DNA of 64,000 nt from NCBI GenBank assembly GCA_964234715.1, contig OZ174281.1. One strand, 5' to 3'. The DNA is from Podarcis melisellensis (lineage: Eukaryota). Below the pieces are notes generated by a model. That model was given only the letters and a program-made list of their open reading frames with translations, did no database searches and was not told the DNA's origin. Positions 5,359 through 61,100 of this stretch are shown in pieces (the first letter of the stretch is position 1; each line of letters starts with the position of its first letter). The position numbers and the translations under genes were made by a program.

Positions 5359-5387
<29 letters not shown>
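5359..5387. repeat. (TA)n microsatellite
   Basis: Direct reading. Confidence 0.9.
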
Positions 5388-5389
<2 letters not shown>

Positions 5390-8394: not shown

Positions 8395-8523
8395 GTTAGC
8401 TCAGGTGGTTAGAGAATGGTGTTGATAATGCCAAGGTCATGAGTTTGAGCCCCATACGGGCCACCTGCCTATGAACTAGGTGACCCTTAGAGTCCCTTCC
8501 AACTCTACAATTACATGATTCTA
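8395..8523 (+). mobile_element. tRNA-derived SINE with CR1-type 3' tail
   Basis: A box (TAGCTCAGGTGG) and degraded B box, then GTCCCTTCCAACTCTAC...ATGATTCTA tail. Confidence 0.65.
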
Positions 8524-9030: not shown

Positions 9031-9839
9031 ATTAAAGCTGAAACCCTAAAAATACTTACCAGGGAGTAAACTCCAATGAGTATGGCTTCTGAGGATTGCC
9101 ATGCACAATGCCAAAAGCAAACTATTCACAACATACATATTCTCAGGAGCCATACAGCCTATTCCTGTGCATGCTTACTCAAAAATAATCTCACCTAAGG
9201 TGAAGAGAGACTGATCATCACAAGTGTGGTGCTGGTGCTCTCAAGCAAACTGTAGCAATTATTTGGGGCGGGGAGGATGTTCGTTCAAAGCAGCTCCCCC
9301 CCAACTTTGGCTGTCTTCAGCCCAAGTTCAGGCATCCCCAGTAAGTATGCACGTGATCCCAGCCTCGGGATGCAACAGCGATACTAGCAAGACTTTGGAA
9401 CCAGAAGCTGCTGCACCTGGATCTCAGCAACCAACAGCTCTTCCGCTTCCCAGGCAGAGTCAACAGAATCCTCTTGGCAGCTCTGGGTATCCAACCTTTT
9501 GCTATTCTCCTGGAATTACTTCCATCTCTGGAGATCTGCAAGGCAACAAGCCTGCCTCTCTCTACGCACACGCAGATAACCCACCCTCCTCTCTGCAGTA
9601 CAAACCCGGTTTACACGAGCAACCTCCCCCCAAAACCTGCCCCCACTTCCTGCTTCTAACCCAAATATCTCCGATAGACTGGAAGAACAATGCCCTTTTG
9701 GGGGGGGGCTCAGTCCAGGTGGTTGGCGCATGCACAAAGCAAGCAAGCCCCCCCCCCCTTTCCCAAAGGTCTCAGCTGCTGCTATTTCAACGGGCAGCAG
9801 CGTTGCTTGCTGGCTTGCTTGCCTGTGCTTATAGCCATT

Positions 9840-10960: not shown

Positions 10961-11425
10961 AAGTAACATCGGTTCAGTTAAAGTTTACTCTCAGGTTAAA
11001 AAAAAAAAGAGTATAGGATTAAAGCTTGAGAAAGAGGGTGTTTTCTCACACTGGTTTTGTGTGGCCTGAACCAGTTCTTAGTTTGGCCTGGTGTTACTTA
11101 AACTTCTCCCCCCCCCCTCTCAGAAAACAGAGGCTAGGATGCCAATTTGAAACTCAGTGTAGTATACTGTCAGTTTAAAGCTGGCGCTAGGAAACGGAAT
11201 TCTTCACACACACTATGGATGGATGGTATCCGTGATTTGTAAATAATGAGCCAATGGCCAAATGTTTCCCTGCAAGGCATATGTAATTGGGGTCAGATAT
11301 ACTTACAGTGTACATAGACTGCAGTCTTAAAACAGGTCTTCTTGCAAGCAGACACTATTGAATTTAATAGGACTTACTCCCTGGTAAATGGAAGTAGGAT
11401 TGCAACCTAAGTCCCATCATAATTA

Positions 11426-11667
11426 CAGTGGTACCTCGGGTTACAGATGCTTCAGGTTACAGATGCTTCAGGTTACAGACTCCGCTAACTCAGAAATAGT
11501 ACCTCGGGTTAAGAACTTTGCTTCAGGATGAGAACAGAAATCGTGTTCTGGCGGCACGGCAGCAGCGGGATGCCCCATTAGCTAAAGTGGTGCTTCAGGT
11601 TAAGAACAGTTTCAGGTTAAGAACGGACCTCCAGAACGAATTAAGTTCTTAACCAGAGGTACCACTG
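11426..11667 (+). mobile_element. Tc1/mariner-type MITE (CAGTGGTACCTC family)
   Basis: TIRs plus TA TSD. Confidence 0.85.
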
Positions 11668-14147
11668 TATATACTGACTCGTTACTACCATGCTTCATTT
11701 TGGTTCCGCCCCCTCCTTATAAAAAAAAATGTATGAAAAGGCCCTGCCAATGCAATTCCAGTAAAAATGCAATCTCTTAGCCTGCTATTTCAGGATGGGA
11801 GACCATGGTTGAAGGTGTCAGTTATGACAGTCCTGTAGTGTAGTCAGTGCTTCAAGTCATGGTTGGGGCTTTGGATGGAAGGGGATACAAATTAGTCTAT
11901 CAGGCTGCAGCAAAGGTCAATCTACCTAAATTGTTTTTGATTTTCCACTATGTTGTATAGAATATTAATGTGTTACATTATTCCCATCCTTTCTATGTAT
12001 AGCACATAGTTCTATATATATATGTGTATATTTTTAAAATGAGAATTGCTGGAAGACCCTTTGGGTGACAAGTGACAATTAAGCGTAATAATAAAAATAT
12101 AGTTCCTCGGAAGTCTTCCCAGCTCAATGAAAACCTTGGCTGCATGCAGCAGTCTTATTGTTTTGAAGGTAGAAGTGTTGCACTTTTAATTCCCCCCCCC
12201 ATATCACATGAAATAAGATTATATTGAGAAAGAGCAGAAACCATTTTGCTGCGTTCCTCCCCTTTTTTTAGGGAAGGGGGCTTGTTGGTGCACCTGGAAT
12301 GAAGACTTGACATAGGAATATGTTTAAAGCTTATATTGATTAAAATATAGCAAGGGCAGCTTGCACCAAACCAAGCGGAAGTGCAGGAAAGTATAACCTG
12401 TGCCTGCTGCTAAAGGCCAAACCACCTCAGAACAACTCCCTCATGCAAGTTATCCTGTAGGAAGCCAAACCATCTTCCCATAAAGGGAAGCCTTGACCAT
12501 CCCACCCTATGCTGTTCAGCGTTCCGCAGGTGGCACCTATAGATATGTTTGTAGTGAAGGAGCTCTGTGTGGAGTAGGGACACTCTGTTCATTTTCTAGT
12601 CTGCTTCTATGGCTCTCTAGACTTTCCCAACCTTGGGTCCTCTCTCCAGATGTTGTTGGACTATAACTCCCATCATCCCTAGCCTGCAGAACCAGTAGGG
12701 GAGGGGGAAAGCTGGTCTAGACAAGTCACTGGCTAAGCCTCATTTTCCTGTCCATAAAATGAGACCATTAATTATCTAATTAGGGCTGTTGTGGGTATAA
12801 AGCATTAGGTTGGGATTCTTATAGAAGTGATAATCGCTTTCTTTATGTGTATTTATTTGGATTTCATCTACAGCGTACTGCACAGATGTCTCGCAAAGCT
12901 GCTGTTAATATGACTGATTTTGAAGAACATGGCAAAGCTTTATTGCTAATCCTCCTAACTCTATGATAAATCTTCACTGTTTTGTTCAAATACACACTAT
13001 GACACAATGTGGCTGTGCTTCTTGCCACATCTTATCATGTTTCATTTTGCAAATCTCAGGACCTCGAGATTAGGATAAACACTATAAAATTTAAATGCTG
13101 TGGCTTAGCCTTACTATATATATAAACTTTTACTCCATTTTTAATGTATGATTTATCTTGCAGGATTTAGTCACTGGATTTCTGTATTATAATAGATTTA
13201 CAAGCTTCGGGAGCCAAACAGTTTTAGAATCTATAGGTGGATTCAAGAGCCCATGATGAATCCATAACCTGCTTTGGTACCAAAACCATGCTTCCATTCC
13301 AGCAGAAAAACAAATCTAGTGAATTGCTTCCAGATTAGGGTGGTGGGATTGGCTAACTCTCCTCCACATGTCCCTTTGAGATGAATGTGGGGCTGACTAT
13401 GGAAGATAGTCTAATGGCATGCTTGTTGTTGTCTGTTGATTTTATTGCTCTTTCCATTTCTGGTCCTAACTTGGCTTCTCCCAAGTTGTGTATGCTGACG
13501 CAGGTAGGACAGCTAGAACAGGTGAAAAGCACAGTGCCCTACTGCTGGCCAGCAGAGGCTCACCCAACTGGGTTGTGGCATGGATGACAAAGTGAGAGGA
13601 GCTGGAGGAAAAGGGATTGACCTAAGGCCCCTATCCCAAGAACAGATCCAAAAGGATAGAGACTCATGAAAATTGAGTGCATCCTCTATACAGTGCATGG
13701 CATGTATTAGCTAGGTTTCTGTCTATTTCCAGAAGAAAACACTAAATAGGTACTGTCTACCTGTGAAAGTATAATGGGGAGTTTAGATATTTAGGAAATT
13801 ATTCTGTATTGCATCTCCTGCACATTACTTCCTGCTGAGCCATGAAACTCCAACTCTGCCCATTTTTAAAAATGCAAACTCAATATTATACACTTTTACA
13901 GGGGGACAGTACCTATTGAGTTAGTGTTTTCTTCTGGAAGGAGACAGAGAAGGGGGGCTTGGAATGCCTTGTTCTTGTTACTACATTCCCTCAGAGGTAA
14001 AAGCTGTCCATTTCTGCACTGTAGTGCAAATGGGATCCATTCACGATAAAGTTGGCTATAAGTAGTTATGCTTTTAGCTGTCATAACCATTAAATCCAAA
14101 CATCAGTTCCCTTAGTATATTCTAGCAACACTTTTGCCATCTGATAA

Positions 14148-16130: not shown

Positions 16131-17769
16131 ATGTTGTTGTTGTTATAAATAATAATATAACAGCAAGCCAGGGGGCATGTCAACTGTTGGATCAACAGAA
16201 CAGCCTGTGTAGCCATGCCTTGAACCTGCTGCACCTTTGAACTTTGCCTTGCTTATGTATCACCATACTGACTGGTGGTATATTACATTTTTGGCAGAAA
16301 ATGGTAATCGTCCTTTGTCCAGCCTGAGCCAGGACAGGTTGTGAGCCTCTTCTGGATCCCCAGTGCAGCCCTTTGCTGTTAGATAGTTCAGAAATGAACC
16401 TATAATGGACCGTGCTGACAGTAGATCAGTTGATTTATGTATTTTCTGGTGCAAAGATGTTAAATAATGGCAAGTTCAACTAGCACTGATACCGTAAAGG
16501 CACTTAAAGCAATGTTTATGAGCTTGATACAGGAAAACACTAGGACATGTTTCATTTTGGGCATACAGTCTACTTCACTAAAACATGAACAAGGTGGAAT
16601 TACACATTTACCTGGAAATAAGACCCAGTGAACGCAGTGGGGGTTATTTTTGCATAGACATCATGCTCCACAGCATAGATATAAATATCATCTAGCTTTC
16701 TAATTTGTGGGAAATGCTTAGTACATTTGGAACATTAAAAGAAAATTAAAACATGTTGAATTTTTCATGATGCCAAATGTAATAGCCTTTTGTTTCCACA
16801 AAAGCTCTCAGGCAATCAAGATTGTTATTACTAATAAACTTTCCCTAGTGAATGTGTCTTATTTGCAGAAAAATATATATTTAATTCTTAACTGGTGCTA
16901 TTTTCAACTGATATTTTTCAAAAAATTTATTTTATGCCATCATCTTACACTTCTCCTAGTAAATAAATAATGGACAAACCTTTCATTCACAAAAGGTGTG
17001 CATATTCTTTTTAAGCAATGCACAACCCATTCAATTGTTTGTTTCCTTGAATGCAAAACCCACTGACTTAGGTGAGATGTATTTGAGTAAGGATACATAA
17101 CATTGAAACAAGTGCTTCCAAGTATACATACATTGTCATATAATTCAGGAACTCATCAACCATTTAACTGCATGGATACACCAGCTGGAAATTATTAGGG
17201 TAAAAAAAATCAAATCAACCTGACCTCTCTTCATTTACCATTTTGTAAGCATTTTATAATGTTTTACCCCAGAACCACCACCACTCCAACTTCCAAAACG
17301 GAAATGTATATGAATGCGGCAAATATTTATGCATTCAGTACTGTATTTTAAAATAGTAGATGAAGGATTCTGTTTCCTTACAGTTCATAATGTACTTATT
17401 TCTACTGTGGGGTTCACGGCTTAATTCAAAACTAAAGAGAGAATGTATCGATTAGTGTTAAAGTGAGCATATAAAGAGCCACTGTCTGTGCAAATTCTAA
17501 ATCACACAGTTTTGATAGGGTCTCATGTGGGCTTCCTTTGTGCTGCAGCAAAAGAAGTAAACCCCGGTTAAGAGGAGACTGCATAGCTTAATTTATGCAT
17601 GGTCTCTTTCCTGGGAAGACTTGTGACTAAGTTTACATGCTAACTCTGAGTAATCCCCCAAATAATGTGGTGTGGTCATAAGGTCAGCAGGGTTTGAACG
17701 AGATTGTTAAATTCATCCTCTCTACTGAGTTGTAATGCACATACCAAACACCAAACACAAATGCACATA

Positions 17770-17986
17770 CAGTGGTACCTCGGGTTAAGTACTTAATTCA
17801 TTCCGGAGGTCTGTTCTTAACCTGAAACTGTTCTTAATCTGAAGCACCACTTTAGCTAATGGGGCCTCCTGCTGCCACCGTGCTGCCGGAGCCCGATTTC
17901 TGTTCTTATCCTGAAGCAAACTTCTTAACCTGAAGCACTATTTCTGACTTAGTGGAGTGTGCAACCTGTAACCCGAGGTACCACTG
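17770..17986 (-). mobile_element. Tc1/mariner-type MITE (CAGTGGTACCTC family)
   Basis: TIRs plus TA TSD; inverted relative to the 11426 copy. Confidence 0.85.
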
Positions 17987-23837: not shown

Positions 23838-24902
23838 AACTGTTTGGTACTTACAGAAAACTAAACCCATGTTTAAGCCATGTTAAATGGATTTTGGTAA
23901 GGTAGAAGTTTATAAGGTCACCCAGCAGCTGCACGTGGAGGAGCGGAGACATGAACCCGGTTCCCCAGATTACGAGTCTACCGCTCTTAACCACTACACC
24001 ACACTGGCTCTCTGCGGAGAAGTGTGGAGCAGGGAATTAGAAGGTATTATACAATGTAAACAATGGAAAATTGGTATAGAGTCTATACAAAATGTTTCTT
24101 TAGACGTCAAACTGAGATTGGTGCAGGAAAATGCAGTCTTTTGAGCATACTACAACATTTGCATAGGAAAGCATTTATAATACAGATGTGGAAGATGTAA
24201 TGCTGAGAATGCCTCTTATGACGTCAGCTTCTCCAGTGATATCTACCCTTTGGTCTTAATTTGTTACAGCACTTTTGTATTGGTGAAATCCTTGATATTT
24301 ACAGATTTTCATGTACTTTTAAACTATATTCCTGTAGTATGGGGATTAATGGATGGACAGTGAAAGTTGAGTTTTTTTATACTTCAAGTCTGGAAAGAAA
24401 AATACCCAATGGCATTTATAGTAGTCTTAGGACCTCACTGCCCTAGCTACTTTTCATATAGGCATCCATTTCATATGCATGTTGTCTGTTAAATTAATAT
24501 ACATTCTGATTTGCTGAGAGTAGGGTTGAAAGGATCTGCCAGTTTAGGTTCTCTCTTGTTTCTCATTTTTACAAATCAAATTAAGTTCTCCACATCTTAC
24601 AGCAATTTGCAACAAAAATCCTCATTAAAATTCATTACCATTTTAGTGCAAATTTTTCCTAGTAAACACACTTTATATGCAGTTTTCAGAAATGTGTGTA
24701 AGTCCCCCTAATATAATGCATATTTGTATGTTCCTTTCATGAATATAATTATTTTTATGCATACTTCCCCACAATATATGCATCTTTGTAAACATTGGTT
24801 GGAGAACTGCGTCACAATGTGTATTCCGGTTCATATGTTGTTTTGGAAAGTGTGGGTTCAACAGTGTTAAATGAATCAAATTTCTCCTCCATTCCCCAGT
24901 TA

Positions 24903-25144
24903 CAGTGGTACTTCGGGTTAAGTACTTAATTCGTTCCGGAGGGCCGTACTTAACCTGAAGCTGTTCTTAACCTGAAGCACCACTTTAGCTAATGGGGCCT
25001 CCTGCTGTTGCTGTGCCGCCGGAGCATGATTTCTGTTCTCAACCTGAAGCAAAGTTCTTAACCTGAAGCACTATTTCTTGGTTAGCAGAGTCTGTAACCT
25101 GAAGCATATGTAACCTGAAGCGTATGTAACCTGAGGTCCCACTG
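24903..25144 (-). mobile_element. Tc1/mariner-type MITE (CAGTGGTACCTC family)
   Basis: TIRs plus TA TSD. Confidence 0.85.
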
Positions 25145-26601
25145 TAGTGGAAAGGTTAGATAATGTTGTATCCAAGCAAGTGTTGCCCACCCTTTCCAGT
25201 GCAGTTCCCTGTCACTTTCCTTCTTGCCAAACGTTCAATACTTTGAAGAAGCAGGTCTGTTACACAAGACCTTCCAATCAAGTATAATTGTGCAACCTGC
25301 TGGTTTGTGATTGACTCTCACTAGTAAATAGCAACAGTCTAGAAGCATCCCATGTCCATTTTCTCTAAACTATATATAACTCTATACACTTTGATCATGT
25401 CACCATTTAATATATGGCACCATGCTTGTGTATTTTGTGACTGGCACATTATAAACTGCAGCTTCAGATATCTGGAAGGAGGCAGGTTATCTAACCACAA
25501 AAAAAGAACAGCAAAAGATAACTCTCCTTCACTTTTATAATTAACAGTGAATAATAATTTTTGCACAAATGTGTAGCCATCTTTTGTGACCTAGTGCCAC
25601 TTGAAGAGAATGGGAAAGAAATCAGTTTAAAAGAGCCATTGGAGTCTGACCTTGGGGTAGACAACAGGAATTAATAAACAACTTGGATCAGATATAATAA
25701 CAGTAATGGAAACTTGCCGTCATAGAAATGAAATGCCATTCTGCACACAAGCAGGACTCGGCTTTTTGAATCCATCACACTGATTCAGGCAAATATTCAC
25801 AAGGCTTTGAATGTGATTGAAAAGAGGGATGCCAAGGTTACCCTCTGCCTACGCAGTGTGATAAATACACTGACACATCTCCTGAAGTGACAAACTTGCA
25901 TGTGAAAATGGAACTTAACTCATTGGCATAGGATGATGGCGATGATGCAGCCACAGGTGTTGGGTGACGGATGGAGCTGACATTTGGAGGTTATTCTGAG
26001 AATGAGCTCTCGCCTGAGCATTTCATATAGCTAGATGTGTGGCAAAATGAAGTTCTGATGTGCTATACTAGTATTCTATGAGACGTGTTTCCTCAAGATT
26101 CCATGCTAGTTATCAACAGATGTGTTAAATCTTTCTGTATGGCATTCCAGGATGATTTGCAAAGGGAGGGGATTGCTACAGTAGGGGAACATAATATAAC
26201 AATATTTAAACAGGACAAGGTCTGCAACTTTGGTTGCTAACATGGTGACCTCCAGATGTTGTTGGACTACAACTCATTATTTAGTATTAGATTTTATTTG
26301 GCTACCCTTAACTTACTTAGTATAGATTATAAGAAGATGTACGGTTGGAGCAGAGCCATCATGACCATGAGAGTCTTAGGAAGATAAGAATTCTGACTGG
26401 AATTCAGTGCTTTACTGGGGTAGGAGTTTGGGAATGGTAGATAAGCTGTTAAATCCATCTGCCTGCCTATTCCTTAGCTACCCTGCTGACCTGGGCTATT
26501 TCTTTCTCTTGGTTGATCTTGGAGGGAGAGAACTGAAACCAGCTGTGTGTAATGTGAAAGACCTGGCCCATAGACTTATTTAAAGGGTGCTGCTGTTTGA
26601 A

Positions 26602-29210: not shown

Positions 29211-30996
29211 AGTTGGAGGCCCCTGTGCCCTCTTTCCTAGTATATTGATTCTAATCACCCAATGTCCACAGAGTGGTTTACATAAAAAAAAGATAAACCA
29301 CATCATTACAACTCACAGAACACAATTAAAATAGCAATAATAAAACCATGCATGCAAAACAATTGCTATAAAACCAAAGATGCTCAAGGTTCAAACACAG
29401 TCTAACTGTAGTCACCAAAAGCTAGGGAAAAAAACAACAACTAAATTTCCGTCAAACAGTGAAAGCCCAACAATGACTAATGTTTGATGTTTTATCGTCT
29501 TTTAAATATTTTGTTGGGAGCCACCCAGAGTGGCTGGGGAAACCCAGCCAGATGAGCAGGGTATAAATAATAAAACTGATAACAACAACAACAACAACAT
29601 ATCCTTTAAGCACTCTCCAGGTGTTCTCTAAATGTATTAACTAAGCACACAAGGAGGTTAGCAGAGATGAGTGTGGCACCCACTATTATCATTTTCCCTG
29701 GCAAAGTTCTAAAAAGTGCTGGTTAGCTACATAAGTTCAGGGGTCTCCTGACTTCAGACTGTTGCCCTCCAACTTGTGAAGGGCAATGAGAATAATGATG
29801 TGGGCCTGGAGCTAGCATGCTCCTCCCAACTACCCCCCTTGCATGTTCAGTTAACACATTTAGATGATGCCTGGAGAGGGCTACATATGCATTGGAACCA
29901 GTGTAGGAGCCTAACTTCTGCGGGAAAGCGTGTGGTGTCCTTGCCATTTTGAAAACTCATAAATCACAATTTGCATAGAGTTTGCTACTCCCTAAATGCT
30001 GGTGATTGAGTTATAAAAAATTCTGTTGGACAAGGCAGTAGTGAGCGCATTAGAAAGATCTGTAATGACTGCATTGCTGCAAAAGAAGTGTTAGAGATAA
30101 TCCACTGCCATCTGTCTTTATTTTGCAAAGCCACTCAACTGGAGACCATATTTACAAAGGAAAAACAACAACACTTATTACAAGAAAGAGCTGGAAGACT
30201 AGTGCAAAATTATCTTCACAGAGATACAGCTGCATTCCAAACAGTACTATGTTCATTCAGTTACCCAATTTTAATTTGAAGCCTCGCAAGCAAAGCTTTT
30301 ATTAAAAAATAAATAAATGTAAAAATGCAGATCTTTGTGTAATCAGAATACACAGGATACATAGGTGTGCACTGAGTGTTACTTCTGGGCATAATTTTCT
30401 TCTAAATGATTTCTTTTCAGTGTGTCACACAGCAGTAAATTAATCATGCAGAGTCTTCTTCATAAACAAATTAAAACTTTACTGAAGAAAATAAACTTGT
30501 TCATAAACAGGATAGTTAAAGCGCATACACAGAGTGCTCATAGCTGCTACCTGCCTCTTCACAGAGGCACAGTCTTAGTTAGTGATTTACTAGAGTCCTG
30601 GAGCCACTCTGTCTGCCTTAGCTTTACACAGCAGCAGCAACAACAGCACCATTCCACAGACTACTCCATACACAATCCATACAGCTCTCTGATGGAGGCC
30701 CATAGCGAGACTGGCTACTTTTATTGGGAGAATGAGTCACAGTGATTTAGCAGTTTGCTGTTAACAGTTAGCAGGCTTAGGCTTGAATGATTTTGTTGGC
30801 CTTACTGCTTCTACTGCTCTCAGGAATCTTTGTCTCATGACACTGTGGCCACAACATTATCACACAGGGTTGGTTTACTGAATATGAAATATGAACAGCA
30901 TACAATCAAACAGAAAAATTGTTGAACATCCTACAAGGTGGAGCTAGATTGCCTAATGTGCAGAAATATAGTACACAATTTGCAAGAAAGGAAAAG

Positions 30997-32147
30997 TGTA
31001 GCACCCTGCTTGTGGTTAACGCTTAGCTGGAATGAAATATTCAACGCAGCAACAGAGAAATTAAAATAATAATTTATTTGTCAGACAAATAAATGAGAGG
31101 CACAGTGGTATATGGTTACCAAGCTCTGGCCTGGCCTCCTGCCATTCTGGCCAGCACTTATATTCCCTTAATCCAGCCCCCTTTGCTCCTCCTTGGGCTG
31201 CCTCTGTTCAATCAGCCTGGTTGGATTTCCTATTGGCTGATTGCTATAACTAATCACAAAAAGATACACCCATATCCTCCTGTCCTTATAAGGGAGACAA
31301 AGAGCTATATATAAATGACAAATAAGTAATAATATATCTTACATGGAATCTTAATTACCAGCTCACCTCTTGCCCTCCTTGCCCTATTGCCTTCTAAAAC
31401 AAATGGTTAATCTTACATTTTTATCTTCAAGGATCTTGAGTTAATCATCATTGAAAGATCTCCTTCATTTGAGGGTCTTTTAAACAAATGCCTGACAACT
31501 ATATATCAGAAGTGTTCGATGGCGTCTCCTGTCTGGCAAGGGGGGCTAGGCTCATTTGCCCCTCTGGTCTCCTATTGCAATATGACTCTATGAATCTAGC
31601 ATTTCTTAAATCCTTTGCATAATTACATTTAAGCCAGCATATTTCATACATAACATATATAGCTTTTTAGAAGGATAAATCTCCTCAAAGTAAAAGGAAG
31701 GAACAGTTTACAGCCTCAAAATAAAAAGTGAAGAAAAAAGTCTCTTCCCCTGTTTACACTCCCCCCCTTCTCCAGCCAGTTGTTTTCAAAACCATTTGCT
31801 CTTGGCCTTTTACCCTGTGGCTCAAGTTTAAGAAAGGCCCATGGTATCATTTTACTATTTGCCCATTCCTAATTGTGTTTTCTCAGCCTTTTTTATGTTC
31901 TGTAACATGCAGGATCAGTGTCCTTGCTCTCAGTCTGTAATTTCCTCTTTTTTTAAACGACTTTGAGAATTGTTTTTCCTGCTATAAATCAGGGGGGGGG
32001 CCCTTGTTCAGGAGGAAAACATTGCCAAGGTTCCTCTGCCTGGCATGAAACATTTGAAAATCTAAGCCCATTTAATTTAGGAACCTGATCAAGATATAAG
32101 CCAATATAAGTCTTGATTAAAAATGCAGTCTATATTCAGATGCCACA
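30997..32147 (-). repeat. 3' LTR
   Basis: Identical by eye to 36812-37962; minus-strand CCAAT at ~31232, TATAAG at 31157-31162, AATAAA at 31073-31078. Confidence 0.97.
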
Positions 32148-32158
32148 TTCCCCCCTTT
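32148..32158 (-). other. Polypurine tract
   Basis: AAAGGGGGGAA immediately 5' of the 3' LTR. Confidence 0.9.
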
Positions 32159-32176
32159 CAAGCTCAAGGACCTTGC

Positions 32177-33611
32177 TTACCAAGCGTCCTTGATAGCTTG
32201 ATCTTCATCATATTCCTGAGGTAAAGCTCTGTATAGGGCCATGATATGAGGTAGAGTTTCATTCGAAATCATCTTGCTAATTGTACTTCTAAAACATGAG
32301 ATGATACATGGCACCATACATAAAACCATTATTACTACCGTCAAGAAAAACAAGCAAGACAATAATATCCCTTTGAGTCCCGCAACATTAGGTAACCAAT
32401 TGGTGAGCCATCCCATATCCCATCCTTCCCATGTTTGTACTTGGACATGTGCTATATTCTCCATCTTTGTAGCCAACACACGGATTGCCTCACCATTATC
32501 AGAAATGTTAAAGCAACAGGCATTCCCTGTCAAGTTCAAGACTCCACATAGGCCTCCCTGCCTGGCAAGTACATAATCCATTCCCATTTTCAGCTGCAAA
32601 ATGGCGGCTCTACTTTCATCCAACTGTTATGCAATAAGTCTCAAACTCTGGGCCGTTGCATTGGTTACAAGTTCCACTACTGCTTGCAATCGAATTATTC
32701 TGTTTAGATTATAAATAGGATCCCGTGCCCCTTGTATGAGCTCACCAGGATTCCAGGAGGCAGGATCATAATAGGCTATAATGCGCTCTGGCGGCCAATC
32801 ATCAGTACCGCTCCAACTTTGGGTACTTCCTCCTGCTATACGAGAAATATCAGCATTCCTTCGTGTTCGCTTAGCTGAACTAGTGGGCATAATCCACATT
32901 GGTGGTAATACCCATCCCAGGAAACAAGTCCCACTCCATTTGGAAGGGAGTTTCTTGTATGCCCATTCTCCACATATCCACCACAACCATCGGGTCTGAG
33001 GTTTTTGGTACGTGGAGTACAGAAGGCGAAAATATCAAAAGAGGTAGAGAGTTCACAGTGCAGTATGTTAGATTGCCTTTTTCTGTCACAGTTATGTTCC
33101 ACACCACTTTCCATGCATGAATAAAAGGAGGTGCACAGGGCAAGGTATTCCGAGTTCGATACGTAGTACCGTTTGCCCAGGTTTGACTATTCTTAATATA
33201 ATCCCAAGTATAGTGGCAATGAGAAGAGCCTATCATGGTAGGATCAGCTGCATCTGATGATTTATGCACACAGATTTCCCCTTGCACAGGTATAACTCGT
33301 ATTGGTTTAGTTGAGTTCCAACCGGGGAAATTCTGTACTTCTGTTTGGTGTGGCATTTCGCTTACCATACCAATGGCACTTAATGGTATTGGTAATAAGG
33401 GCATACCTCCCTCTGAATCATCTGGCCCAAGAGAGCAAACAAGGCAATTGGTCCTATTTGCAACATTGGCTACCATTTCAGCTAAACCTACCCACATATT
33501 GTGGTCATGGCTGAATCCATATTTAGCAAATTTGGTCAGATTCAAGGACCCTTCCCTTTCCCAAGGGATCAGGATTAATAATAAAATCATGTTGATGTCT
33601 AGCATATGCAT
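32177..33611 (-). pseudogene. env: Disrupted env (ERV3/HERV-E-like gamma-type SU-TM)
   Basis: Signal peptide MLDINMILLLILIP, CxxC (CLVC), WWICG..AY.KLP..WSGTC, furin site RTRR, WPPERII.YY.PA.W, LNRIIRLQAV, Cys loop, TM helix; frameshift(s) at ~32987-33050 and an in-frame TAA at 32627-32629. Confidence 0.93.
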
Positions 33612-33711
33612 TCCTTCCACAAAAGATTACCTTATTGTGATAGCAAATAATTATTAGTCCCAATATAATTCCCCCAGTGACAGAAATGGGGAACCACCAA
33701 GACCAAAACAT
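33523..33711 (-). CDS. Candidate small hydrophobic pre-env ORF (62 aa)
   Basis: MFWSWWFPISVTGGIILGLIIICY...; one TM-like segment; overlaps the env start in another frame. Confidence 0.3.
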   Translation of the reverse strand: MFWSWWFPISVTGGIILGLIIICYHNKVIFCGRNAYARHQHDFIINPDPLGKGRVLESDQIC

Positions 33712-33922
33712 ATATCCCAAGGATCCCCAATGTGTAATATCTCTGATAATTGTTCCACAAGGGGGCAGTCAATCAATTGTATAAGAGAATCTTCCCGTTC
33801 ACAATTGCTGGTTTAGACGCTCCTCAAGCTCCAGGCGTGCGCAGGTCAGCCAGCTTCCAGGTTGTGGCTGCAGCAGGCCGGTCGTCTAATGTTGCCCGTG
33901 ACCTAACCCGTTCCCGGTAGGG

Positions 33923-34409
33923 CTAGATACAGGGGTTTTTGGAGAGAGTCAGTTTTAAAGGATTAGAGGGGTCACCTTTGCACGTCCAACTGCCTCCGGA
34001 CTTCTTCAAACGAGAGTGATGAATCCAGGGGGTCACCTCAGCTACCTTCACCGCTGTTAGAATAGAGAGCAGGACGGTGTAAGGTCCACGCCACTTAGGT
34101 GCAAGTGGATCACGTTTCCACTCTTTCACCCATATGCTATGCCAGCCTGGAGCTGATGAATCGGCTTGGCAATGCTGCACGGCGTGTGCTTGAGGGCCCA
34201 CCTGTTAAGATAAAAAAACAAACAAACACGGGAGAGAGACAAAAACACGGGAGAGATTGCACTTGTCCCTGTGTCACATGGTCTCCTATTTGTTTGAGGT
34301 CAGTTGGAATATCCTGAACAAAGGAGGGCGGCCTCCCATACAGGAGCTCAAAAGGTGACAACTTAAGTCTTTTTGTGGGTGCGCACCGAACACGAAACAG
34401 TGTTATGGG
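33923..34409 (-). pseudogene. pol: pol remnant: integrase C-terminal part only
   Basis: PITLFRVRCAP...LSPFELLYGRPP, then WVKEW...LAPKWRGPYTVLL...AVKV..VTPWIHHSRLK (GPY/F module); contains an insertion and a frameshift. Confidence 0.92.
34201..34258 (-). promoter_or_regulatory. Probable env splice acceptor
   Basis: Long pyrimidine-rich tract ending ...TTTTTATCTTAACAG|G (intron end 34202). Confidence 0.6.
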
Positions 34410-34999
34410 TCAGCAAGCACATGGGGATATTAAAGCAGCCTGTGCTTTTCCTTTGCAGGCTTGGCACAGCCCGGCCTGGTCCCTGGGGTGCAGGGCCGTA
34501 AGAGATGGAGGCAGGCTGGGCCCTCTCCCTCCTGGGTGAAGCACCTGCCGGAAGCCTCGTGGCAATCATCCCCCCCCCCGGGGGCACACGCAACAGACAC
34601 TGGGGCCAACGGAGCGTGGTGGGTTAGGGTGGCAAATGCCTCTCTGAGCTCCGCAGAAAAGCTGAACTTGCACCAGAGCCGCCTCTGACCCACATAATGG
34701 GCTATTGCCAGCTTGTATTTTAGGGAGCTGGTTTCTTGTTTTCAGCCTTGCAGCAGCAGTACCCGACTGCACACACTTAATGTGATCTCACAACAATCCT
34801 AGGAGGTAGGCCATGGTTATTCCCATTGTAGAAGAGAGGAGAAACGGAGTGATATAATGCCAGCAGTAGTATAAATATGTCCCCATACATGCACCATACA
34901 AATAAAGAGTGGACACATAGTCCTACAGATACAACCGGCCCTTTGAGGGTGACCAAACTGTTGATGCGGCCCCCGATGAATTTGAGTTTGACACCCCTG
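34410..34999. other. Non-retroviral cargo replacing most of gag-pol
   Basis: No retroviral reading frame seen; contains a GC-rich exon/intron-like piece (34410-34775), a MIR/CORE-like fragment (~34780-34850) and a hAT terminus (~34850-34999). Confidence 0.8.
34850..34999 (-). mobile_element. One end of a hAT (Charlie-like) DNA transposon
   Basis: Begins CAGGGGTGTCAAACTCAAATTC on the minus strand; the adjacent 8 bp are GTCTAAAG; no second TIR found. Confidence 0.75.
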
Positions 35000-36310
35000 C
35001 TTTAGACATATTAGTGGGCTTCTGGCATGCCCTGCAGATGCCTTGCACAAGCGTCTGGCGGTAGGTAGTAAGCCTGGCCAGGTGAATTGCATTGTTTGGA
35101 TCCCAATTAGGATCTTCCAAGGGAAAGTTGTCCTGGAGATGATGGTCAATATTATAAATATTTCCCACTCTGGCCTGCTCACGCAAATATATCTGTGCCT
35201 TTTCAATTATGTCTCTCCTTTCCTCAGTGGTGAAAAGAGTATTCAGGAGCTGGCGACAATCTGTCCAAATAGGACTATTACTATTAAGGTCACCAAGTCC
35301 ATCATAGCCTGAGGTTTTTCTGCGAAAGATGGGGTGTTTTCCAATTCATCAGATCTGTAGTTGTGAATGGAATACATTGCAGGGTCGAAGTTCGAGGTGG
35401 CCGTGGTCCAGGTTGCCCATTAACCAGCACAGGCTCCTCAAGTGCATCAAATACTCTTCTAAGAGGGGCTACTACGTGACCTTTTTCTTCACTTTGCTCT
35501 AGGGGCCTCAAATCATAGGGGATGGTATTTGTCCCAAGGCGTTCTTTTAGCAGCTTTATACGCCTGGCTGTATTGCTTGCTGACCGATTAAGGTCTCCCT
35601 GTAACTTCTGTAATAATTCTCTAGGACTTGGATGTACAGGGGTTTGGGGTAGGCAATCAGTTGTTCCACTAAAAGAGACTGTAGATGGAGTTCTACTGGG
35701 ACTCACAGGTGGAATAACCACTTCTGCTTGGGCTTCATTATAGGACTCCAATGCCTCCTGAAGATATTTATCATAATCTATCAAGGAATCAAGCTCTGTG
35801 ACTCCACCCCCATTATTCGTTCCACTTTCTTGCCTTGGGGTTACAACTGGTGGAGGGTTTGAATTAGGCTCCCTTCGATGTGGAGCATAGGGGGGAGGTG
35901 GAAGCACCTCTTCCTCTGGTCCCTCAAAAATGGGTTTAAGTTTATTTGGCAAGATTCCTTTCCTAGCTTCGGCTTTTACAGCCAATAATTTGCATCGTTG
36001 GACTTTGCATTCCCTTATCCATGGAGGATTTTTTTATTTAATGTGCTCAGCCAGGAATCTATATATGAAAATTGTTCTGGGCACCCTCCAGTTTCTTTGG
36101 TGATGTTAGACCAAAGTTTGCTTACTAAATTTATATCAAAGGTTCCCTGGGATGGCCATCCAGTACTTTGTTTTGGCTACCCTAATTCACATAACGTTCT
36201 CAAGCGCTCTGGCGTCATTTTGACTCCATATGCCCCTGAGAAGGCTTTCTTAAAATTATTTAACATACATTCAAGAGGTGTATTTCCCCCTTTGAACCCC
36301 CAACTCCCAT
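35000..36310 (-). pseudogene. gag: Disrupted, 3'-truncated gag (MA, late domain, CA N-terminal part)
   Basis: MGVGGSK myristoylation motif, TPLECMLNNFKK, LRTLCE..GWPSQGTF, PPPY, PFTTTDLMNWK, PIWTDCRQLLNTLFTTEER, FPLEDPNWDPN, KPTNMSK; about 4 frameshifts and a TAG at 36177-36179; no MHR or NC. Confidence 0.93.
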
Positions 36311-36601
36311 TGTATGGCCCTGTGAAGTATCCACTCAGTCACTCACACACACGCCTTACTGGGAAACGAAGTAGTACTCACTCCACACTTAGGTCAGCTA
36401 CACATTGTACTTTCTCACACATGCAATGTGCTAGATACTTCAACCACACTCTACCTCCCAATCTTCCCTTTTCCCTACACCAGATCACCATCTGATGTAC
36501 CCAGCCACCTAGCGTACTCAGTTCCCCTTTACTGAGACGCAGAAGTTTGATCAGGACTTCTCTTCCTCCCAATTAATTGGAGGGCCAAAACCCCTTAGTG
36601 C

Positions 36602-36610
36602 ACTTACCCT
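36602..36610 (-). promoter_or_regulatory. Major splice donor of the provirus
   Basis: AGG|GTAAGT consensus in the leader between PBS and gag. Confidence 0.75.
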
Positions 36611-36787
36611 TAGCTGGTTGCCTGTTTCCCCCGGTCCGTCGCCGCCAGTGAGCAGGGTATCAGACAGACGAGACTTCTGCGTTCCCCCTGGAAAAATTTA
36701 CCAGTGCGCGCTGGGAAGCAGTTTAGAGATCCTCTCTCTTGTACCCTGTCCAATAGGGCGAAGGGGCTGCGTTCCAGCAGACCACTT

Positions 36788-36806
36788 ATCCGAGTCGCAG
36801 GCACCA
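36788..36806 (-). other. Primer-binding site, tRNA-His-like
   Basis: TGGTGCCTGCGACTCGGAT versus the tRNA-His(GTG) complement TGGTGCCGTGACTCGGAT: one extra base and one substitution. Confidence 0.8.
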
Positions 36807-36811
36807 TAAAA

Positions 36812-37962
36812 TGTAGCACCCTGCTTGTGGTTAACGCTTAGCTGGAATGAAATATTCAACGCAGCAACAGAGAAATTAAAATAATAATTTATTTGTCAGA
36901 CAAATAAATGAGAGGCACAGTGGTATATGGTTACCAAGCTCTGGCCTGGCCTCCTGCCATTCTGGCCAGCACTTATATTCCCTTAATCCAGCCCCCTTTG
37001 CTCCTCCTTGGGCTGCCTCTGTTCAATCAGCCTGGTTGGATTTCCTATTGGCTGATTGCTATAACTAATCACAAAAAGATACACCCATATCCTCCTGTCC
37101 TTATAAGGGAGACAAAGAGCTATATATAAATGACAAATAAGTAATAATATATCTTACATGGAATCTTAATTACCAGCTCACCTCTTGCCCTCCTTGCCCT
37201 ATTGCCTTCTAAAACAAATGGTTAATCTTACATTTTTATCTTCAAGGATCTTGAGTTAATCATCATTGAAAGATCTCCTTCATTTGAGGGTCTTTTAAAC
37301 AAATGCCTGACAACTATATATCAGAAGTGTTCGATGGCGTCTCCTGTCTGGCAAGGGGGGCTAGGCTCATTTGCCCCTCTGGTCTCCTATTGCAATATGA
37401 CTCTATGAATCTAGCATTTCTTAAATCCTTTGCATAATTACATTTAAGCCAGCATATTTCATACATAACATATATAGCTTTTTAGAAGGATAAATCTCCT
37501 CAAAGTAAAAGGAAGGAACAGTTTACAGCCTCAAAATAAAAAGTGAAGAAAAAAGTCTCTTCCCCTGTTTACACTCCCCCCCTTCTCCAGCCAGTTGTTT
37601 TCAAAACCATTTGCTCTTGGCCTTTTACCCTGTGGCTCAAGTTTAAGAAAGGCCCATGGTATCATTTTACTATTTGCCCATTCCTAATTGTGTTTTCTCA
37701 GCCTTTTTTATGTTCTGTAACATGCAGGATCAGTGTCCTTGCTCTCAGTCTGTAATTTCCTCTTTTTTTAAACGACTTTGAGAATTGTTTTTCCTGCTAT
37801 AAATCAGGGGGGGGGCCCTTGTTCAGGAGGAAAACATTGCCAAGGTTCCTCTGCCTGGCATGAAACATTTGAAAATCTAAGCCCATTTAATTTAGGAACC
37901 TGATCAAGATATAAGCCAATATAAGTCTTGATTAAAAATGCAGTCTATATTCAGATGCCACA
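36812..37962 (-). repeat. 5' LTR
   Basis: TGTGGCA...GCTACA; CCAAT at ~37047, TATAAG at 36972-36977, AATAAA at 36888-36893. Confidence 0.97.
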
Positions 37963-38693
37963 AAAGGACTAACAGTGCTGAGAGTGCCATTCTAAATGCA
38001 CCTACAAGCCTCATAATTCTAAGTATAGGATTACCATTGCAAATGAGTGACTTGTAGGGAAAACTGGTGGCAATCATTTTAGGCGCATCCAAATGACACA
38101 TGATTGGCAACACGTGGGTGCTTTGGGACCTGGTAGAAGGCAGAATGGGGGGTTGCAGGGAATAGAATGGGGCATAGCAGGGCTGAAATACAATGCTTGG
38201 AGTACAATGTTTACTTACTTTGGTTTTGATCTGAAACAGCAATATTGACATTTTTATTGTGTTTTGTTTACTTCTTAATACATTAATTTAATATCAGTGT
38301 AGTATAGGTGATTATGCCTTTTGGCAAGACAGGTGAGATGTTATGATTTGTTTATTCGTTCATGGAAGATCCTTACATCTCACTTTTTCTCCTATCTGGA
38401 GCATAAAGCATCTAACATCCAATAGATAAACAATTATACAAAATAACACATAACTGAAACCACAAAATTGTACTCTGTCTCAAGTGACAGCTGAGATTTC
38501 AGTGTATAGCACTTAATAATCCAACAGCAATTCAACTAATAAGTGAGGCAATAAAAATATAACCATCAGCTAATAGTGGAACAATAAAATAAATCCCAAA
38601 TAATCAACTAATAACAGAAATAAAAGCACACATTATAATTTACCCTCTGCCTTTCCCTTCCTCAGTAGCAACAGCATTTTACGCTGTTTAATC

Positions 38694-54832: not shown

Positions 54833-57671
54833 TCAACTCAGAGTAGACACATTCAAATCAAGTGGCTTAACTTATTCATTTTGCAACTAGTGTACACTGA
54901 ATTTATACAATTCTGGAAGTGTTACTGCATGCTGACCTTTTCTTGTTTCTGTTTCATGGTGCATTTTTCTTTTCCCCCACCATCAATCAGATTTATATAA
55001 AACTAACGTCAGAAAAGCTAAAAATTTCTTTGGTCTTAGGACATAGTTATATATAAATTTGACTGCCTCACAGGAGTGCATTATTCATAAGAAAACATCA
55101 TCAAAGAAGACCATTTTAAAATCACAGTAACTTTCTATGATCTTTTATGACAGGATAACTTTCAGTGGATACAACCAGACATTTGTATAAAGTTCACAAA
55201 ATATTTGGCAGCACCAGTTTAAAAGTTTTGCTACTTGTGCTTTAAAATCCTTTGGATAGCCTACAGTGCTAAAGGTCTCATAATTTTGCTTTTATAATTT
55301 ACTTTTGGTATGTGTGCATATGAACATGTTGATCTTTTGGGAATCAGACATTTTACTTCTGAAAACTGAGGACAAATAACCCCTTAGATTTGGTTCAGAA
55401 TTTATTTGCAGACTGCTTGTGTTTATTGAGTTTTCAAAAACAACAACGTACAAGCAAGACAAACAATAGAAAAGAACCGTGCTGATCACATTATTGCAGT
55501 TAGAATAAAATATGCAGAAGGCTTATTTTTTGCAGACTTTCAAGTATCATATGAGGTCAAGTGATTTTGTTCTCAGAGTACCTAGCAGACTTGTAGCAGG
55601 CCTTGGATGATTCTAACACCCCATTACCTGGGGCAGGGGACAGCACCTTCTTTACCACACAAAAGAGCTCTGCTGAGTAGCTTCTTGAGCATGCAATGGA
55701 GGCAGCAATACAGATATTTTTTCCTGCCTTTATTGCCATATGATAGAAACAATTATACACTCTGATATTCAGTCAGCTTCACACTGGCTCTTGCACCACT
55801 TCTGCTATATAACCTTTAGAAGACAACAACTTTTCTGTCCGGATTTTCACTGTTTGAAATATGGCAACCCTATGTATAGAAAAGCTTTTTAATGTGTAAT
55901 GTTTTATTATGCTTTTATATACATTGGAAGGCACAAAGAGTGGCTGGGGCAACCCAGTCAGATGGTAGGGTATTGCTCCTCCTCCTCCGCCTCAAAACTC
56001 CATAGTTAGAGTTTACAAACATTTGGACCAAATTGCTCTTAGTTTATCAATTTAATTTATTAAAAAAAGTTTACACTCCAACCTTCTTCAGTTGAACTTA
56101 AGGTGACCAACAAGGGTAACTTAAAACAATTATAACAATTATAAAATAAGAGTAAATCACTTGAAAGCTGCAGTAGAAAAATTGCCTCAATACAAAGAAT
56201 GGTTTCTTGGGGGCTTTTGCATTAATATTTGTTTGTAGAGAGAGTTTTCTGTCACCTTTTGTTCCCTAATAGGATATACTTACTGATATTTTTAAGGAAA
56301 TTTAGAATTCAGTTTTATTTCAGCTGAACTCAACAGACAGGCAAGAATGCTGAGGAATGAGACCAAGGGAAAACGAAAGCTCATATCACTCACCAGAGAA
56401 ATTTTAAAATGCCTTTGCCTATGGTGGTAGCAATGTGTGCTTTGGGACCACAGTGTTGTGTGTCATGAACTTCAAGCTTGTTTTAATGTCAGCCAACGAG
56501 CCACCATTTCATCTCTAGGTAAGTGTTCAGATGGTGCCCAGCTGTAACTCAATCTGATCACAATCTGTCCAGGATTTCTTATTTGTACAACTAACCATAT
56601 GAAGGCAAGCCAAGCTGAGTTGGGGGTGTAGCTGGCATAGACATTTTAGAGTACTGAAGGCAAAGGGAGAAGTTGGCCATTGGGTCATGTTTCCTTCCTG
56701 TCTTTTAGGGAAAGAAGAATGTTTTTTGTAAGGAATTAATTTTGCTTTTCTACCTCAGTATCCCTCTTTCGGGGCATTGAATGGCTTGCGATTTGGCACC
56801 AGCTGAGGCCAGAGAAGTCCATTTGACAATCTGACGTTTATTGTGCTGTAATCCATTTTGAAGGAACAGTGAAGGAAAATGGACATAACCAGACAACGGG
56901 GCCTATTAAACAAAATGAAAGGTAGAGCAGGCTGCCAAGCTCGCTGGAGAGTTGCCTTTATCCAGTGCTGTGATGTTTACAAAATAGATGTGATGTAATG
57001 TTCAGCTGCATTTTACAAGGATGCTGACACTTAGAGAGGGTCCTGAACTTCTACAATTACTTTTCCTGTCCTTTGAAGACCACCTGGTTTTGTTTAACAG
57101 ATTTTAAAAGGGCACTAGTAGGATTTGGCTGAAATAAACCACGTCTCATGTTTATGAGAGCCAAATGGAAGGGTAGTACTGTGGACAAACAGTGCACTTA
57201 GAGATATTTTCCCAAGATTGGTGCAAATGCTCTTTTGTTTTTCTTGGTGGAAGTAGGTAAAAAGGGCTTATGGTAAGTTGGGGGAGGGGTAGTCCCTCTG
57301 GTGAAGGACACATCATGCTCCTTCTGGGGTAATTTGTACACCTTTGGTCCCCACCCTGCACTCACCTATCACCTGTGGCTCCTAGAAGCTGTCACCATGT
57401 GACAGCAGGCACAGCTCAGGAATGGCTTTGACTGGCTGGCTAAACCAGATGACAGTGGCTGATGAGTCTCAAACCCTTGGTGAGTTAGGGATTTCTCCTG
57501 CATGCAGGCTCCGGTGGATTGAGAGGGTGAAACCAATAGTGGGTCCAACAATCAAGAAGGTGGTTTCTGAACCTGCTATAGAGGGAAGTGAAGGGCAGAT
57601 GGGGCTCATCAACCTGGAAAGGAGACAAAAAGTTCTTATCCTAAACTACCACTGCCTTGTGCAATCACTTC

Positions 57672-58108
57672 GAGAGAAGAGTCTTTTCCAGGGAGTCTTC
57701 TCTTCTCATGAGGTGGCCATTGGAGCCTCAGCTTCAGGATCTGTCCTTCCAGTGAGCACTCAGGGCTGATTTCGTTAAGAATGGATAGGTTTGATCTTCT
57801 TGCAGTCCATGGGACTCTCAAGAGTCTCCTCCAGCACCATAATTCAAAAGCATGAATTCTTTGGCAATCAGCCTTCTTTATGGTCCAGTTCTCACTTCCA
57901 TACATCACTACTGGGAAAACCATAGCTTTTACTATATGGACCTTTGTTGGCAAGGTGATGTCTCTGCTTTTTAAGATGCTGTCTAGGTTTGTCATCACTT
58001 TTCTCCCAAGAAGCAGGCATCTTTTAATTTTGTGGCTGCTGTCACCATCTGCAGTGATCATGGAACCCAAGAAATCCCCTTCTATTTGGCAGGAGGTGAT
58101 GGGACCAG
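57672..58108 (-). mobile_element. BovB (RTE) LINE fragment, C-terminal part of the ORF
   Basis: GSMITADGDSSHKIKRCLLLGRKVMTNLDSILKSRDITLPTKV.IVKAMVFPVVMYG.E.WTIKKA...AFELWCWRRLLRVPWTARRSN. Confidence 0.93.
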
Positions 58109-61100
58109 TGGAAAATACAGTGGAAAAAAATGAAATTTAAAACCCTTCCTAATTGTCCTTGTTTCATTCTTTCCCTCTGTCTTTTCCATATTAATCTTTT
58201 CTTCCATGATCTATCCATTTTTTGCAGAGTATATTTTCAATTATAAATAGCCCTTATAACAACACACTGAACTGAAGCTTCTGCAATTTCTAAACACACG
58301 TTCTTCTAACTAAGGGAGAATTCTTTATCTCCAAATGTACAGGAAATTGGTTCAGCTGGTATTTATTTGAGTTGGGGGAGATGAAAAAACATCCTCTTTC
58401 ACAGCTTTTACACGATATGATTTTTATCTGTACTATACAAGTGTAAGTCTAGAGAACCAATTAAACTACCTCTTTTGGGTTATGGAGAAACTGAGAGGAG
58501 ACAGGGTGGGGAAAACCCTGATAGTCTTGGGGAAATCAGTTAAATGTCAGAGGACACATTTATTTTGTATTTATTTGTTAAAACTATTAGAATTTTTGGT
58601 CTAAAAAGCCATGGATGTGAACTCCCAGGGATGATGAGAGTTGCAGTCCAAAACCACATGGAAAGCCACAGATCCCTGAACCCTGTACTAAGCTGTGTAT
58701 TCTTCTGAGTTTGTTTTTACACTGAGAACCTGTTGCAGTGATGCAGGAATGGGAAACCTGTGCATCCCCAGCTGTTGCTCTCCTCCAGTTCCCATGGCTC
58801 TGCTGGCTGGGACTGATGGGAGTAGGAGTCTAAAAACATTCAGAGGAGCACAGGTCCCCATTCAAGCAGTAATGGGTGGTCAGCACAACCACAGAGTGCT
58901 TCCTTTCCAAAAAGGCCATGCTCCATGGTCTGAAATAGCATGATACAAGCTTCTTGCCCTCTCCCATTCTTCCTCAGTAAACACAAGCAGCAGACCAGAC
59001 GCTCCTTGAAGGGTTCAACTCCATGGGTATTTAGATACAGATTGCAATAAAACAAAAAGAAAGAAATTAATCCTGTCCATGTATAATGTTCTTTTTAAAC
59101 TGTAAGAAATAAATTAAACCTAAATACCAGCTGTCAGAATTAGGACTTCCCTTCAAAAGAATGCCTATTGTTAGAAAATGCTAAAACTGTTTTTACTGAT
59201 GAAGTTGCTGCTTGAAAGCTGGATGGTTTTCGCCGACTTTTGAAGTGGTGGTGAACATTGCTGGCAGTTCCAGAACTTTCTTGACAATGTGATTGTTCGT
59301 TTGCCTCTGCAGCATATGGGTCATTTCCTCTAAGCATGGAGATGTCACCAGGCGCCCAGCTGCTGGTGTGGTGCTGAACACCCTTCCTGCTATCTCCTGG
59401 CCAAGCCTCTTCTGCTTTCAGTCAAATGCTGCCATGCTTCAGCTCTGGCCCAGGTCTTTTAATGAGGTCAGTCAGGTGGATCATGTACAGTGGTTGCTAA
59501 GCAACGTTCGTTTTGACTGAAAGCTACAAAATTTAAGACGCAGCTCTTTTTCTTTTTAACCTAAGAGATTTGTATCTTATTCATTATTAAAGTTGTTAGG
59601 TGCTCTGGTTTCTTCAGATAGAGAAAGAGTGACTTAGGTTACAGTCCTGTGCAGTTGCTTGTGTCAGTTTCCTGCAGTCTAAGCATCCTTGCTGTATTCA
59701 AACATTACCAAATAGGAGGCCTTGCTGCTTTGATCGTATCTGTGCTTTTGCACCCTTCATTGTTAATGTGCACTTCTTGATGTAAATGTTAGGATGTACA
59801 ACTGGGTATACTGTTGGAGGAAATGGATCGTGTCCGTTAGCTCCTCCCTTCTCCATGTGTTTGGACTGGCACAACTTCTGGAAGTTTCTGTATGTGTATG
59901 TGGACCCTGGTGATACACACAGCATATACATTCAGTATGTGCTCATGTTGGCTTTTTCAGAAGTTATGAAAAGCAGCTCCCTGAGTGGGGCAGAGCAGCT
60001 GTGCTAACTTCCTGACAGCTGGGCTGCTTTTGCTTCTTGGGGTGGAGAGGTTTAGGTGGTGGGGAGGTTGGTGCAGTGTGAATGCACTGGCGGGGCCAGT
60101 TCCAGGGATGAGTGTTTTTGTTTGTCAGGTTAGGAAAGGCTGTCCCATGCTGTACTTCTTACTAGTCACAGCAGCCAGCCTATCTACCTGCTTCCTAGCT
60201 GGAGTGGGTCTCTGGTTGTCACCCACTGCACTATCAGCCCTCATCCATTTTGTTCGTCTCACCTGGGCACAATTATAAATTACTCAACTCTCAGGTAATT
60301 GTATAGAGACTCCTTTATTGCTCCATTTTATGCTGTCATGATGCACTTGTGTTCCTTCTTCTTTTCCTCCACTACCTACATGGCAGAGCATTGGTGAAGG
60401 TTTTTAGAGACTCTGATATCCAAGGGAATTGATAATGGGATGAGATTATCTTCCTTTCTCATCACAGTCTCTTTCATCCTCCATTATCCCTAATTGAGAA
60501 GGAAGCAGCAGAATCAGCAGAAAATTAATCTGCTTCTAGATCAATAAGAGAAGATTCTACTTCTAAGGTTTCCTCAATACATACTGTATTCTTTCTGCAA
60601 TCCAGTCATTAAATGAGATCTGACACACTTAAATCAGAGATAGATTAGCTTCTGATTCAAATGGCTAATCCTAAATGATGTAATATGTTCATTCAACAAT
60701 CCTAGACAAATCTGGGTAATAATTAGACCAAGATCTATGTGAAAGAATGTATCACATGAAAGAATGTCTGCCAAAGCACACATTATGTGGCCATCAACTC
60801 TCTATCTTGCCAACTCCCAGTTCCTTTATTTCACCTTGTCATATAAGGCTAGATGATCAGGGAATATAAGTAGGGCAGCTGTTTCCAGAAAAATTGCAGG
60901 GCAGAATATTTACACATGCAAAGTAGGAACATATCTACCAGAAGCCTTGTGCAGGCATTTGGTACTCATGGATTCTCAATGCTTGAAGGGGCTACTGAGA
61001 ATGTGCTAGTTCCACATATTAGATGGCAACATGCACAACAGCCACATTCTCCAGTTGATTCATAATTGGCATGGTTGGTGGCTGAAGTTATGAATGGAAT

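Follow-up and report, generated by a model that had tools for sequence, protein, structure and literature searches.

How a stretch of DNA that does not look retroviral came to stand inside an endogenous retrovirus (ERV), where the coding region should run on from gag into integrase (IN), is the question raised by this locus. The provirus occupies positions 30997-37962, minus strand, of the window, by which we mean the whole stretch of DNA that was analysed (64,000 nt).

The provirus and its broken genes

The element is a gamma-like (class I) ERV, as it has the LTR and target-duplication structure of a provirus and domains of MLV-type gag, integrase and env, recognised by Pfam as Gag_MA, Gag_p30, MLVIN_C and TLV_coat. 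Its features are the following.

36812-37962, minus strand: 5' LTR, 1151 bp, TG...CA ends, 0 mismatches to the 3' LTR
30997-32147, minus strand: 3' LTR, 1151 bp
30993-30996: left copy of the 4-bp target-site duplication, AAAG
37963-37966: right copy of the 4-bp target-site duplication, AAAG
36788-36806, minus strand: primer-binding-site-like stretch read from the sequence, beginning TGG 5 nt past the LTR
36602-36610 (36607), minus strand: probable major splice donor in the leader, score 6.3 in our own matrix
35000-36338, minus strand: broken gag (matrix, proline-rich region and capsid N-terminal domain), final residues KPTNMSK
33926-34409, minus strand: integrase remnant, end of the core and C-terminal domain (MLVIN_C; MLV IN CTD 2m9u)
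near 34201, minus strand: probable env splice acceptor, placed by eye
32177-33626, minus strand: broken env, with a frame change near 33030 and a stop at 32627-32629 that TLV_coat flanks on both sides
32148-32159, minus strand: polypurine tract, read from the sequence

The flanks of the AAAG duplications are unique, and there is no N anywhere in the window. The LTRs are long and CpG-poor (observed/expected 0.12, against 0.30-0.54 in the internal region), and yet they are identical to each other. We take the primer-binding-site-like stretch to be of the tRNA-His type. Splice sites were scored with our own weight matrix, built from assumed frequencies, in which 22 of 6661 GT sites score at least as high as the leader donor. 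The probable env acceptor stays below a score of 7 in this matrix, and another acceptor, at 34313, scores 7.6. Ahead of the env acceptor, within the integrase remnant, 34202-34260 (minus strand) is a pyrimidine tract in which a 14-mer occurs twice (34224-34237 and 34243-34256).

The provirus has no protease, RT or RNase H, and all the genes that are left are broken. Gag was identified through Gag_MA, Gag_p30 (E 3e-16, Pfam) and MLV capsid structures including 6hww; in the frame map it is interrupted by a stop at 36177-36179 and shifts frame near 36030 and near 35290-35340. The frame PITLFRVR opens at 34409 and leads into the MLVIN_C domain, with a frame change near 34140-34204. Since the core part of this remnant was recognised only by reading its motifs, and Pfam and PDB searches were silent on 34140-34409, the IN-side boundary may be misplaced by a few tens of bases. 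By eye, 34410-34470 (minus strand) echoes, across shifting frames, the integrase helix that precedes PITLFRVR; this could be microhomology at the junction, decayed IN or chance. Over gag, IN and env the lesions amount to about seven (two premature stops and about five frame changes), about three of them supported by domain matches and the others read by eye. In protein P0026 the same capsid end is fused to the same integrase region, which suggests that a gag-to-IN deletion like this one may recur in other ERVs.

The insert and its junction with gag

The end of gag at 35000 and the integrase restart near 34409 are separated by 590 bp. In the preliminary description gag stopped at KPTNMSK, integrase resumed at PITLFRVR and the DNA between them was non-retroviral. 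These statements stand: both ends are seen in the frame map and the domain matches, and 0 of the 19 stop-free segments of the six frames match a retroviral Pfam family; nor did Pfam find a retroviral domain in the insert read through with X. It is thus supported that non-retroviral, host-like DNA has taken the place of pro, most of pol and the last part of gag. The possibility that the insert is a rearranged piece of this ERV was also considered and was rejected, shuffled sequences scoring as high in 6/30 and 21/30 cases. The insert and its margin on the gag side comprise these features.

35000-35007, minus strand: hAT-type 8-bp target site GTCTAAAG, formed by the last codons of gag, single copy in the provirus
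34984-34999, minus strand: hAT-like terminal inverted repeat (TIR), 13/16 to the Anolis hAT-N5 TIR
34861-34983, minus strand: presumed hAT subterminal body and a short AT-richer stretch, assigned from position
34781-34860, plus strand: presumed MIR/CORE-SINE-like piece
34410-34700, plus strand: GC-rich host-like DNA, 62% GC, CpG-poor (observed/expected 0.36)
34440-34503, plus strand: strong 3' splice acceptor with a candidate exon of 39 nt (34459-34497) and a weak donor, GTAAGA, all antisense to the provirus

The insert had been described as a mosaic of three parts, and two of them were recovered, the hAT-like terminus by its TIR and the GC-rich part by its composition: 62% GC is matched by 8 of 6092 tiles outside the CpG island of the window, no other part of the ERV exceeds 56% and the flanks have 39-40%. 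The label of the middle part was confirmed neither within the window nor from the literature consulted. We took 34781-34860 (plus strand) to resemble MIR/CORE-SINE, and its best relative, in a comparison made within the window, scored 47.5 against shuffle null maxima of 39-50.5. A second copy or a donor of the insert was absent from the 64-kb window (blastn, word size 7, best E 0.12). Rfam gave two chance-level matches in the window, neither of them inside the insert.

The window is vertebrate DNA, with repeats of a presumably lacertid type, and some features elsewhere in it may be recorded here. A GC-rich island with long overlapping ORFs at 9200-10900 (62% GC at 10001-11000) is probably a promoter or first exon; no Pfam match was obtained for the four of its ORFs that were tested (4/4). 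ARAGORN predicts a tRNA-Ile with a GAT anticodon at 8389-8465 (plus strand), an anticodon that we assume to be unusual for this tRNA in a vertebrate, and the site may be a tRNA-derived repeat. Repeats of about 250 bp, 84-94% alike and in both orientations, lie at 4272-4876, 11421-11671, 17758-17968 and 24900-25148 and are presumably MITE-like. The ORF at 57636-58136 (minus strand), which we take to resemble the end of an RTE/BovB reverse transcriptase, has no Pfam match.

The junction with gag is the most informative part of the insert. The insert opens with CAGGGGTGTCAAACTC, whose first base is the first base of the hAT-like TIR, directly behind the last codons of gag; it begins CAGGG, in agreement with the hAT terminal motif YARNG, and its short TIR is the one that agrees with hAT-N5. 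In table 1 of PMC3014272 the Anolis hAT-N5 TIR is listed with the target pattern NTNTANAN, families related to it have NYYTARRN or NTCTAGAN (PMC3014272), and the Buster target consensus is given as nnnTAnnn (PMC3517528). The 8-mer GTCTAAAG fits NTNTANAN, as do 19 of 4657 internal 8-mers, and NYYTARRN (16/4657), both patterns being fitted by 6/4657; it also fits nnnTAnnn (275/4657), is one base off NTCTAGAN and does not fit NHCTAGRN, all this to be read in the light of several patterns having been compared and the choice made after the 8-mer had been seen. MLV capsid runs PTNLAKV, with Val after the same Lys, and therefore all eight target bases, including the last G, can be gag's own.

No partner TIR was found in the provirus, the best candidates having four mismatches (outside the provirus) and five (in env) and neither of them being followed by the 8-mer, and GTCTAAAG occurs only once in the provirus. 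The assignment to hAT consequently rests on one end, and 34984-34999 can be called a hAT-like end but falls short of a complete element. On the two strands of the window a TIR match of 13/16 is reached by three sites, the two others without such a target. A complete hAT with a target duplication, which could serve as an internal control, was not found in the window. Lone hAT-like ends were seen at 4119, 7910, 20608 and 29225, and the sole pair in range, 4119-7910, has 4/8 flanking bases alike and so is no complete element. An inverted echo of a hAT subterminal motif at 34579-34596 was discarded as chance, 151/300 shuffles being as good. Because the TIR starts exactly behind a preferred hAT target inside gag, it is most likely that a transposase, and not reverse transcriptase, made the gag-side junction. 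The idea that the insert is host DNA transduced by the retrovirus is thus not the best account of this junction, where a TIR meets a hAT target; capture at the RNA level could still account for the IN-side junction or for the parts that are MIR-like and GC-rich.

The acceptor before 34459 (plus strand) scores highest of the 8805 AG sites in the window, and the donor that closes the 39-nt exon scores -0.3, GTAAG being present 101 times in the window. Of the splice signals proposed on the strand opposite to the provirus, the acceptor is therefore confirmed and the donor is not; the host gene fragment, the surviving intron and the multi-copy family put forward in the same description stay hypothetical. 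As no protein matched, 34459-34497 is regarded as a candidate exon only. If 34410-34470 is decayed IN, the strong acceptor could be a by-product of purine-rich viral sequence. A second candidate exon, 34746-34805, was rejected, as no stop-free frame spans it.

On the provirus strand of the cargo the best acceptor scores 4.7 and the best donor 1.3, none of them strong, and neither AATAAA nor ATTAAA occurs, which fits the survival of the cargo in genomic RNA. Moreover, the cargo has the probable leader donor on one side and the probable env acceptor on the other, so that it would be carried by unspliced RNA only. The cargo RNA (34410-34999, minus strand) folds less stably than its shuffles (z +2.0; 98/100 shuffles as stable).

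The searches with the cargo frames were negative in the collections covered. In the search for a host protein, the first 41 aa of the plus frame, compared with longer proteins, had no match at E 10 among 11 candidates, and the 103-aa minus frame had none with its single candidate; PDB returned only four weak matches (E 0.33-5), Pfam sub-threshold matches only (best E 0.002) and ESM Atlas no match. These negatives weigh little, since the collections searched seem thin in reptile proteins. With the low-complexity filter off, one gag-like protein weakly matched the proline/glycine-rich minus frame of the insert (32 aa, 37.5%, E 0.003). The read-through of gag into the cargo, used as a marker of the family, was found in 0/5 candidates at near length; against a representative library it gave 221 matches, the best stretches of which stop by residue 129/140. 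Exact look-up of ten ORFs found 0/10.

Proposed delivery of the cargo and probable passage through RNA

As the LTRs have 0/1151 differences around broken gag, IN and env, the genome was likely defective before it integrated and needed a helper. LTR identity caps divergence at about 0.13-0.2%, and if 15-30% of changes are assumed to be disabling, at most 0.6-2.0 lesions are expected after integration, against about seven seen; under these assumed rates the probability of seven or more is 5e-6 to 4e-3 and that of five or more 5e-4 to 0.05. The provirus genome was thus probably already defective at integration, which suggests that the defective genome was copied later by the enzymes of a helper. 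LTR conversion or assembly polishing may, for their part, be the source of the LTR identity. The old lesions in gag, IN and env do not date the cargo itself; that it was aboard at integration follows from the little time left for a later arrival, and it is very probably older than the last integration. The earlier suggestion that the insert had been copied through RNA is accordingly upheld as probable, on the grounds of identical LTRs around broken genes.

For the whole history we propose, giving it an even chance, that a cargo-bearing hAT end is nested in a re-mobilised defective ERV and that the cargo was delivered at the DNA level. A hAT transposase would have joined a hAT end to its preferred 8-bp target in an older provirus, within gag. 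Behind that end, and still at the DNA level, host DNA (the MIR-like piece and the GC-rich, probably genic DNA) would have entered. In the likeliest form of these events the vehicle would be a non-autonomous hAT bearing the cargo, its far end being lost in the same deletion by which gag would have lost its last part and the provirus its pro, RT, RNase H and most of IN. The picture left by end bypass or by an adjacent deletion would be identical. The defective genome, with its LTRs, primer-binding site, leader and polypurine tract, would afterwards have been packaged and reverse-transcribed by a helper, whose part in the mobilisation we infer, and integrated recently. Having its splice signals on the opposite strand, the cargo would have outlasted the copying of RNA.

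Anolis hobo hATs are described as incorporating genomic DNA, including old TE fragments (PMC3014272, section 8), and PMC8277862 reports Pack-hATs in frog, some of them without one end, and multicopy Pack-TIRs that favour GC-rich DNA. Since Anolis hATs and frog Pack-hATs carry genomic DNA, a cargo-bearing hAT with a lost far end is the simplest account, and arrival of the cargo with the hAT takes somewhat over half of the weight that we place on a transposase origin of the junction.

Capture at the RNA level is a possible course, to which we give clearly less credence than to delivery by the hAT. Reverse transcriptase would have switched from the viral RNA to an unspliced host transcript that was packaged with it and ran antisense to a gene, and then back, either taking up all 590 bp at once, with the target duplication of a host hAT as microhomology, or, after an ordinary hAT insertion into gag, swapping the remainder of the hAT and pol for host sequence. 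This would agree with a hAT that is one-ended, with the strongest splice signal being antisense to the provirus and with internal ORFs that are replaced and not interrupted, as in LTR-mediated retroposition (PMC5131818). In the Drosophila cases described there, microsimilarity was present at 25/29 junctions, with a median of 6 bp (PMC5131818), and the same eight bases could come from a host hAT flanked by a target duplication of its own. However, a switching reverse transcriptase has no reason to hit exactly the point where a TIR begins behind a target of hAT type, and the cases available for comparison were copies of spliced mRNA (PMC5131818).

A more ambitious form of DNA-level delivery, which we think rather unlikely, is a relay of transposon classes, in which the hAT transposase brings part of a host gene, intron and exon, into the ERV, or fuses it there by adjacent deletion, and the ERV becomes a young multi-copy family that spreads the piece, with RNA antisense to the donor gene and a very strong splice acceptor planted wherever it lands opposite to a host gene.

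That the insert never passed through RNA, being a one-off DNA accident after integration (a hAT insertion with deletion or repair filler, the LTRs being identical through youth or gene conversion), we hold to be improbable. The single copy in the 64-kb window would agree with it, as would the animal Pack-TIRs, mostly single-copy products of gap filling (PMC8277862). Nevertheless, insertion, capture and a large deletion would all have to fall within a divergence below about 0.13-0.2%, or else the full 1151 bp would have to be converted; moreover, according to the same source, single-copy Pack-TIRs mostly use nearby DNA, and the source of this insert is absent from the window. An assembly artefact, or decayed retroviral sequence taken for host DNA, is least probable of all: collapsed or polished repeats can yield perfect LTR identity, the IN-side boundary has no domain match and 34410-34470 echoes the integrase helix, but the 4-bp duplications match, the flanks are unique, there is no N, the junction of TIR and target is clean, the GC content of the insert is above all else in the provirus and neither the 19 frames nor the read-through with X gave a retroviral domain.

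Significance and relation to known systems

If delivery by the hAT followed by retroviral copying is true, unspliced host DNA travels first by DNA transposon and then by retroviral copy-and-paste, and host cargo inside an ERV need not come by reverse transcriptase capture. In the classical model, oncogene capture begins with a DNA-level fusion, and the locus would be a natural and young case for asking whether capture of this style does so. If the insert is single-copy, it amounts to an ordinary nested insertion with a deletion. Among titles and the beginnings of abstracts, which included few subscription papers, there was no report of this provirus, and none of a lizard ERV carrying a hAT-ended cargo.

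With class I ERVs the provirus shares the four Pfam domains, TG...CA LTRs, a primer-binding site, a polypurine tract and the 4-bp duplication; in contrast to them it has no protease, RT or RNase H, and the 150 gag-like matches listed are at most 48% identical. Both routes by which host DNA may be picked up are already known. In LTR-mediated retroposition (Tan et al. 2016, PMC5131818) host sequence likewise stands for the internal ORFs between intact LTR ends; the HERV capture of FAM8A1 and maize Bs1 are examples, and such chimeras can be recopied as non-autonomous elements. The difference is that mRNA retrocopies joined by microsimilarity are described there, whereas the present cargo seems to be genomic DNA with antisense splice signals, and one of its junctions looks like the work of a transposase.

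Pack-TIRs (Tan et al. 2021, PMC8277862) and the hobo_AC hATs of Anolis (PMC3014272) resemble the insert in that a hAT end leads into genomic DNA that was captured together with old TE fragments. Unlike them, as far as these sources describe them, the provirus holds one TIR and one target copy, its TIR is Charlie/Buster-like and not hobo, and the hAT unit lies inside an ERV that is apparently now the carrier. The koala recKoRV (PMC6112702) is also a gammaretroviral genome that a non-cognate middle segment has disabled, with LTRs and target duplications intact; it is reported at several loci, with the retroelement PhER as its middle, whereas the present provirus is known from one copy in 64 kb. 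Thus, what this locus adds to these systems is a combination of known processes in an uncommon order.
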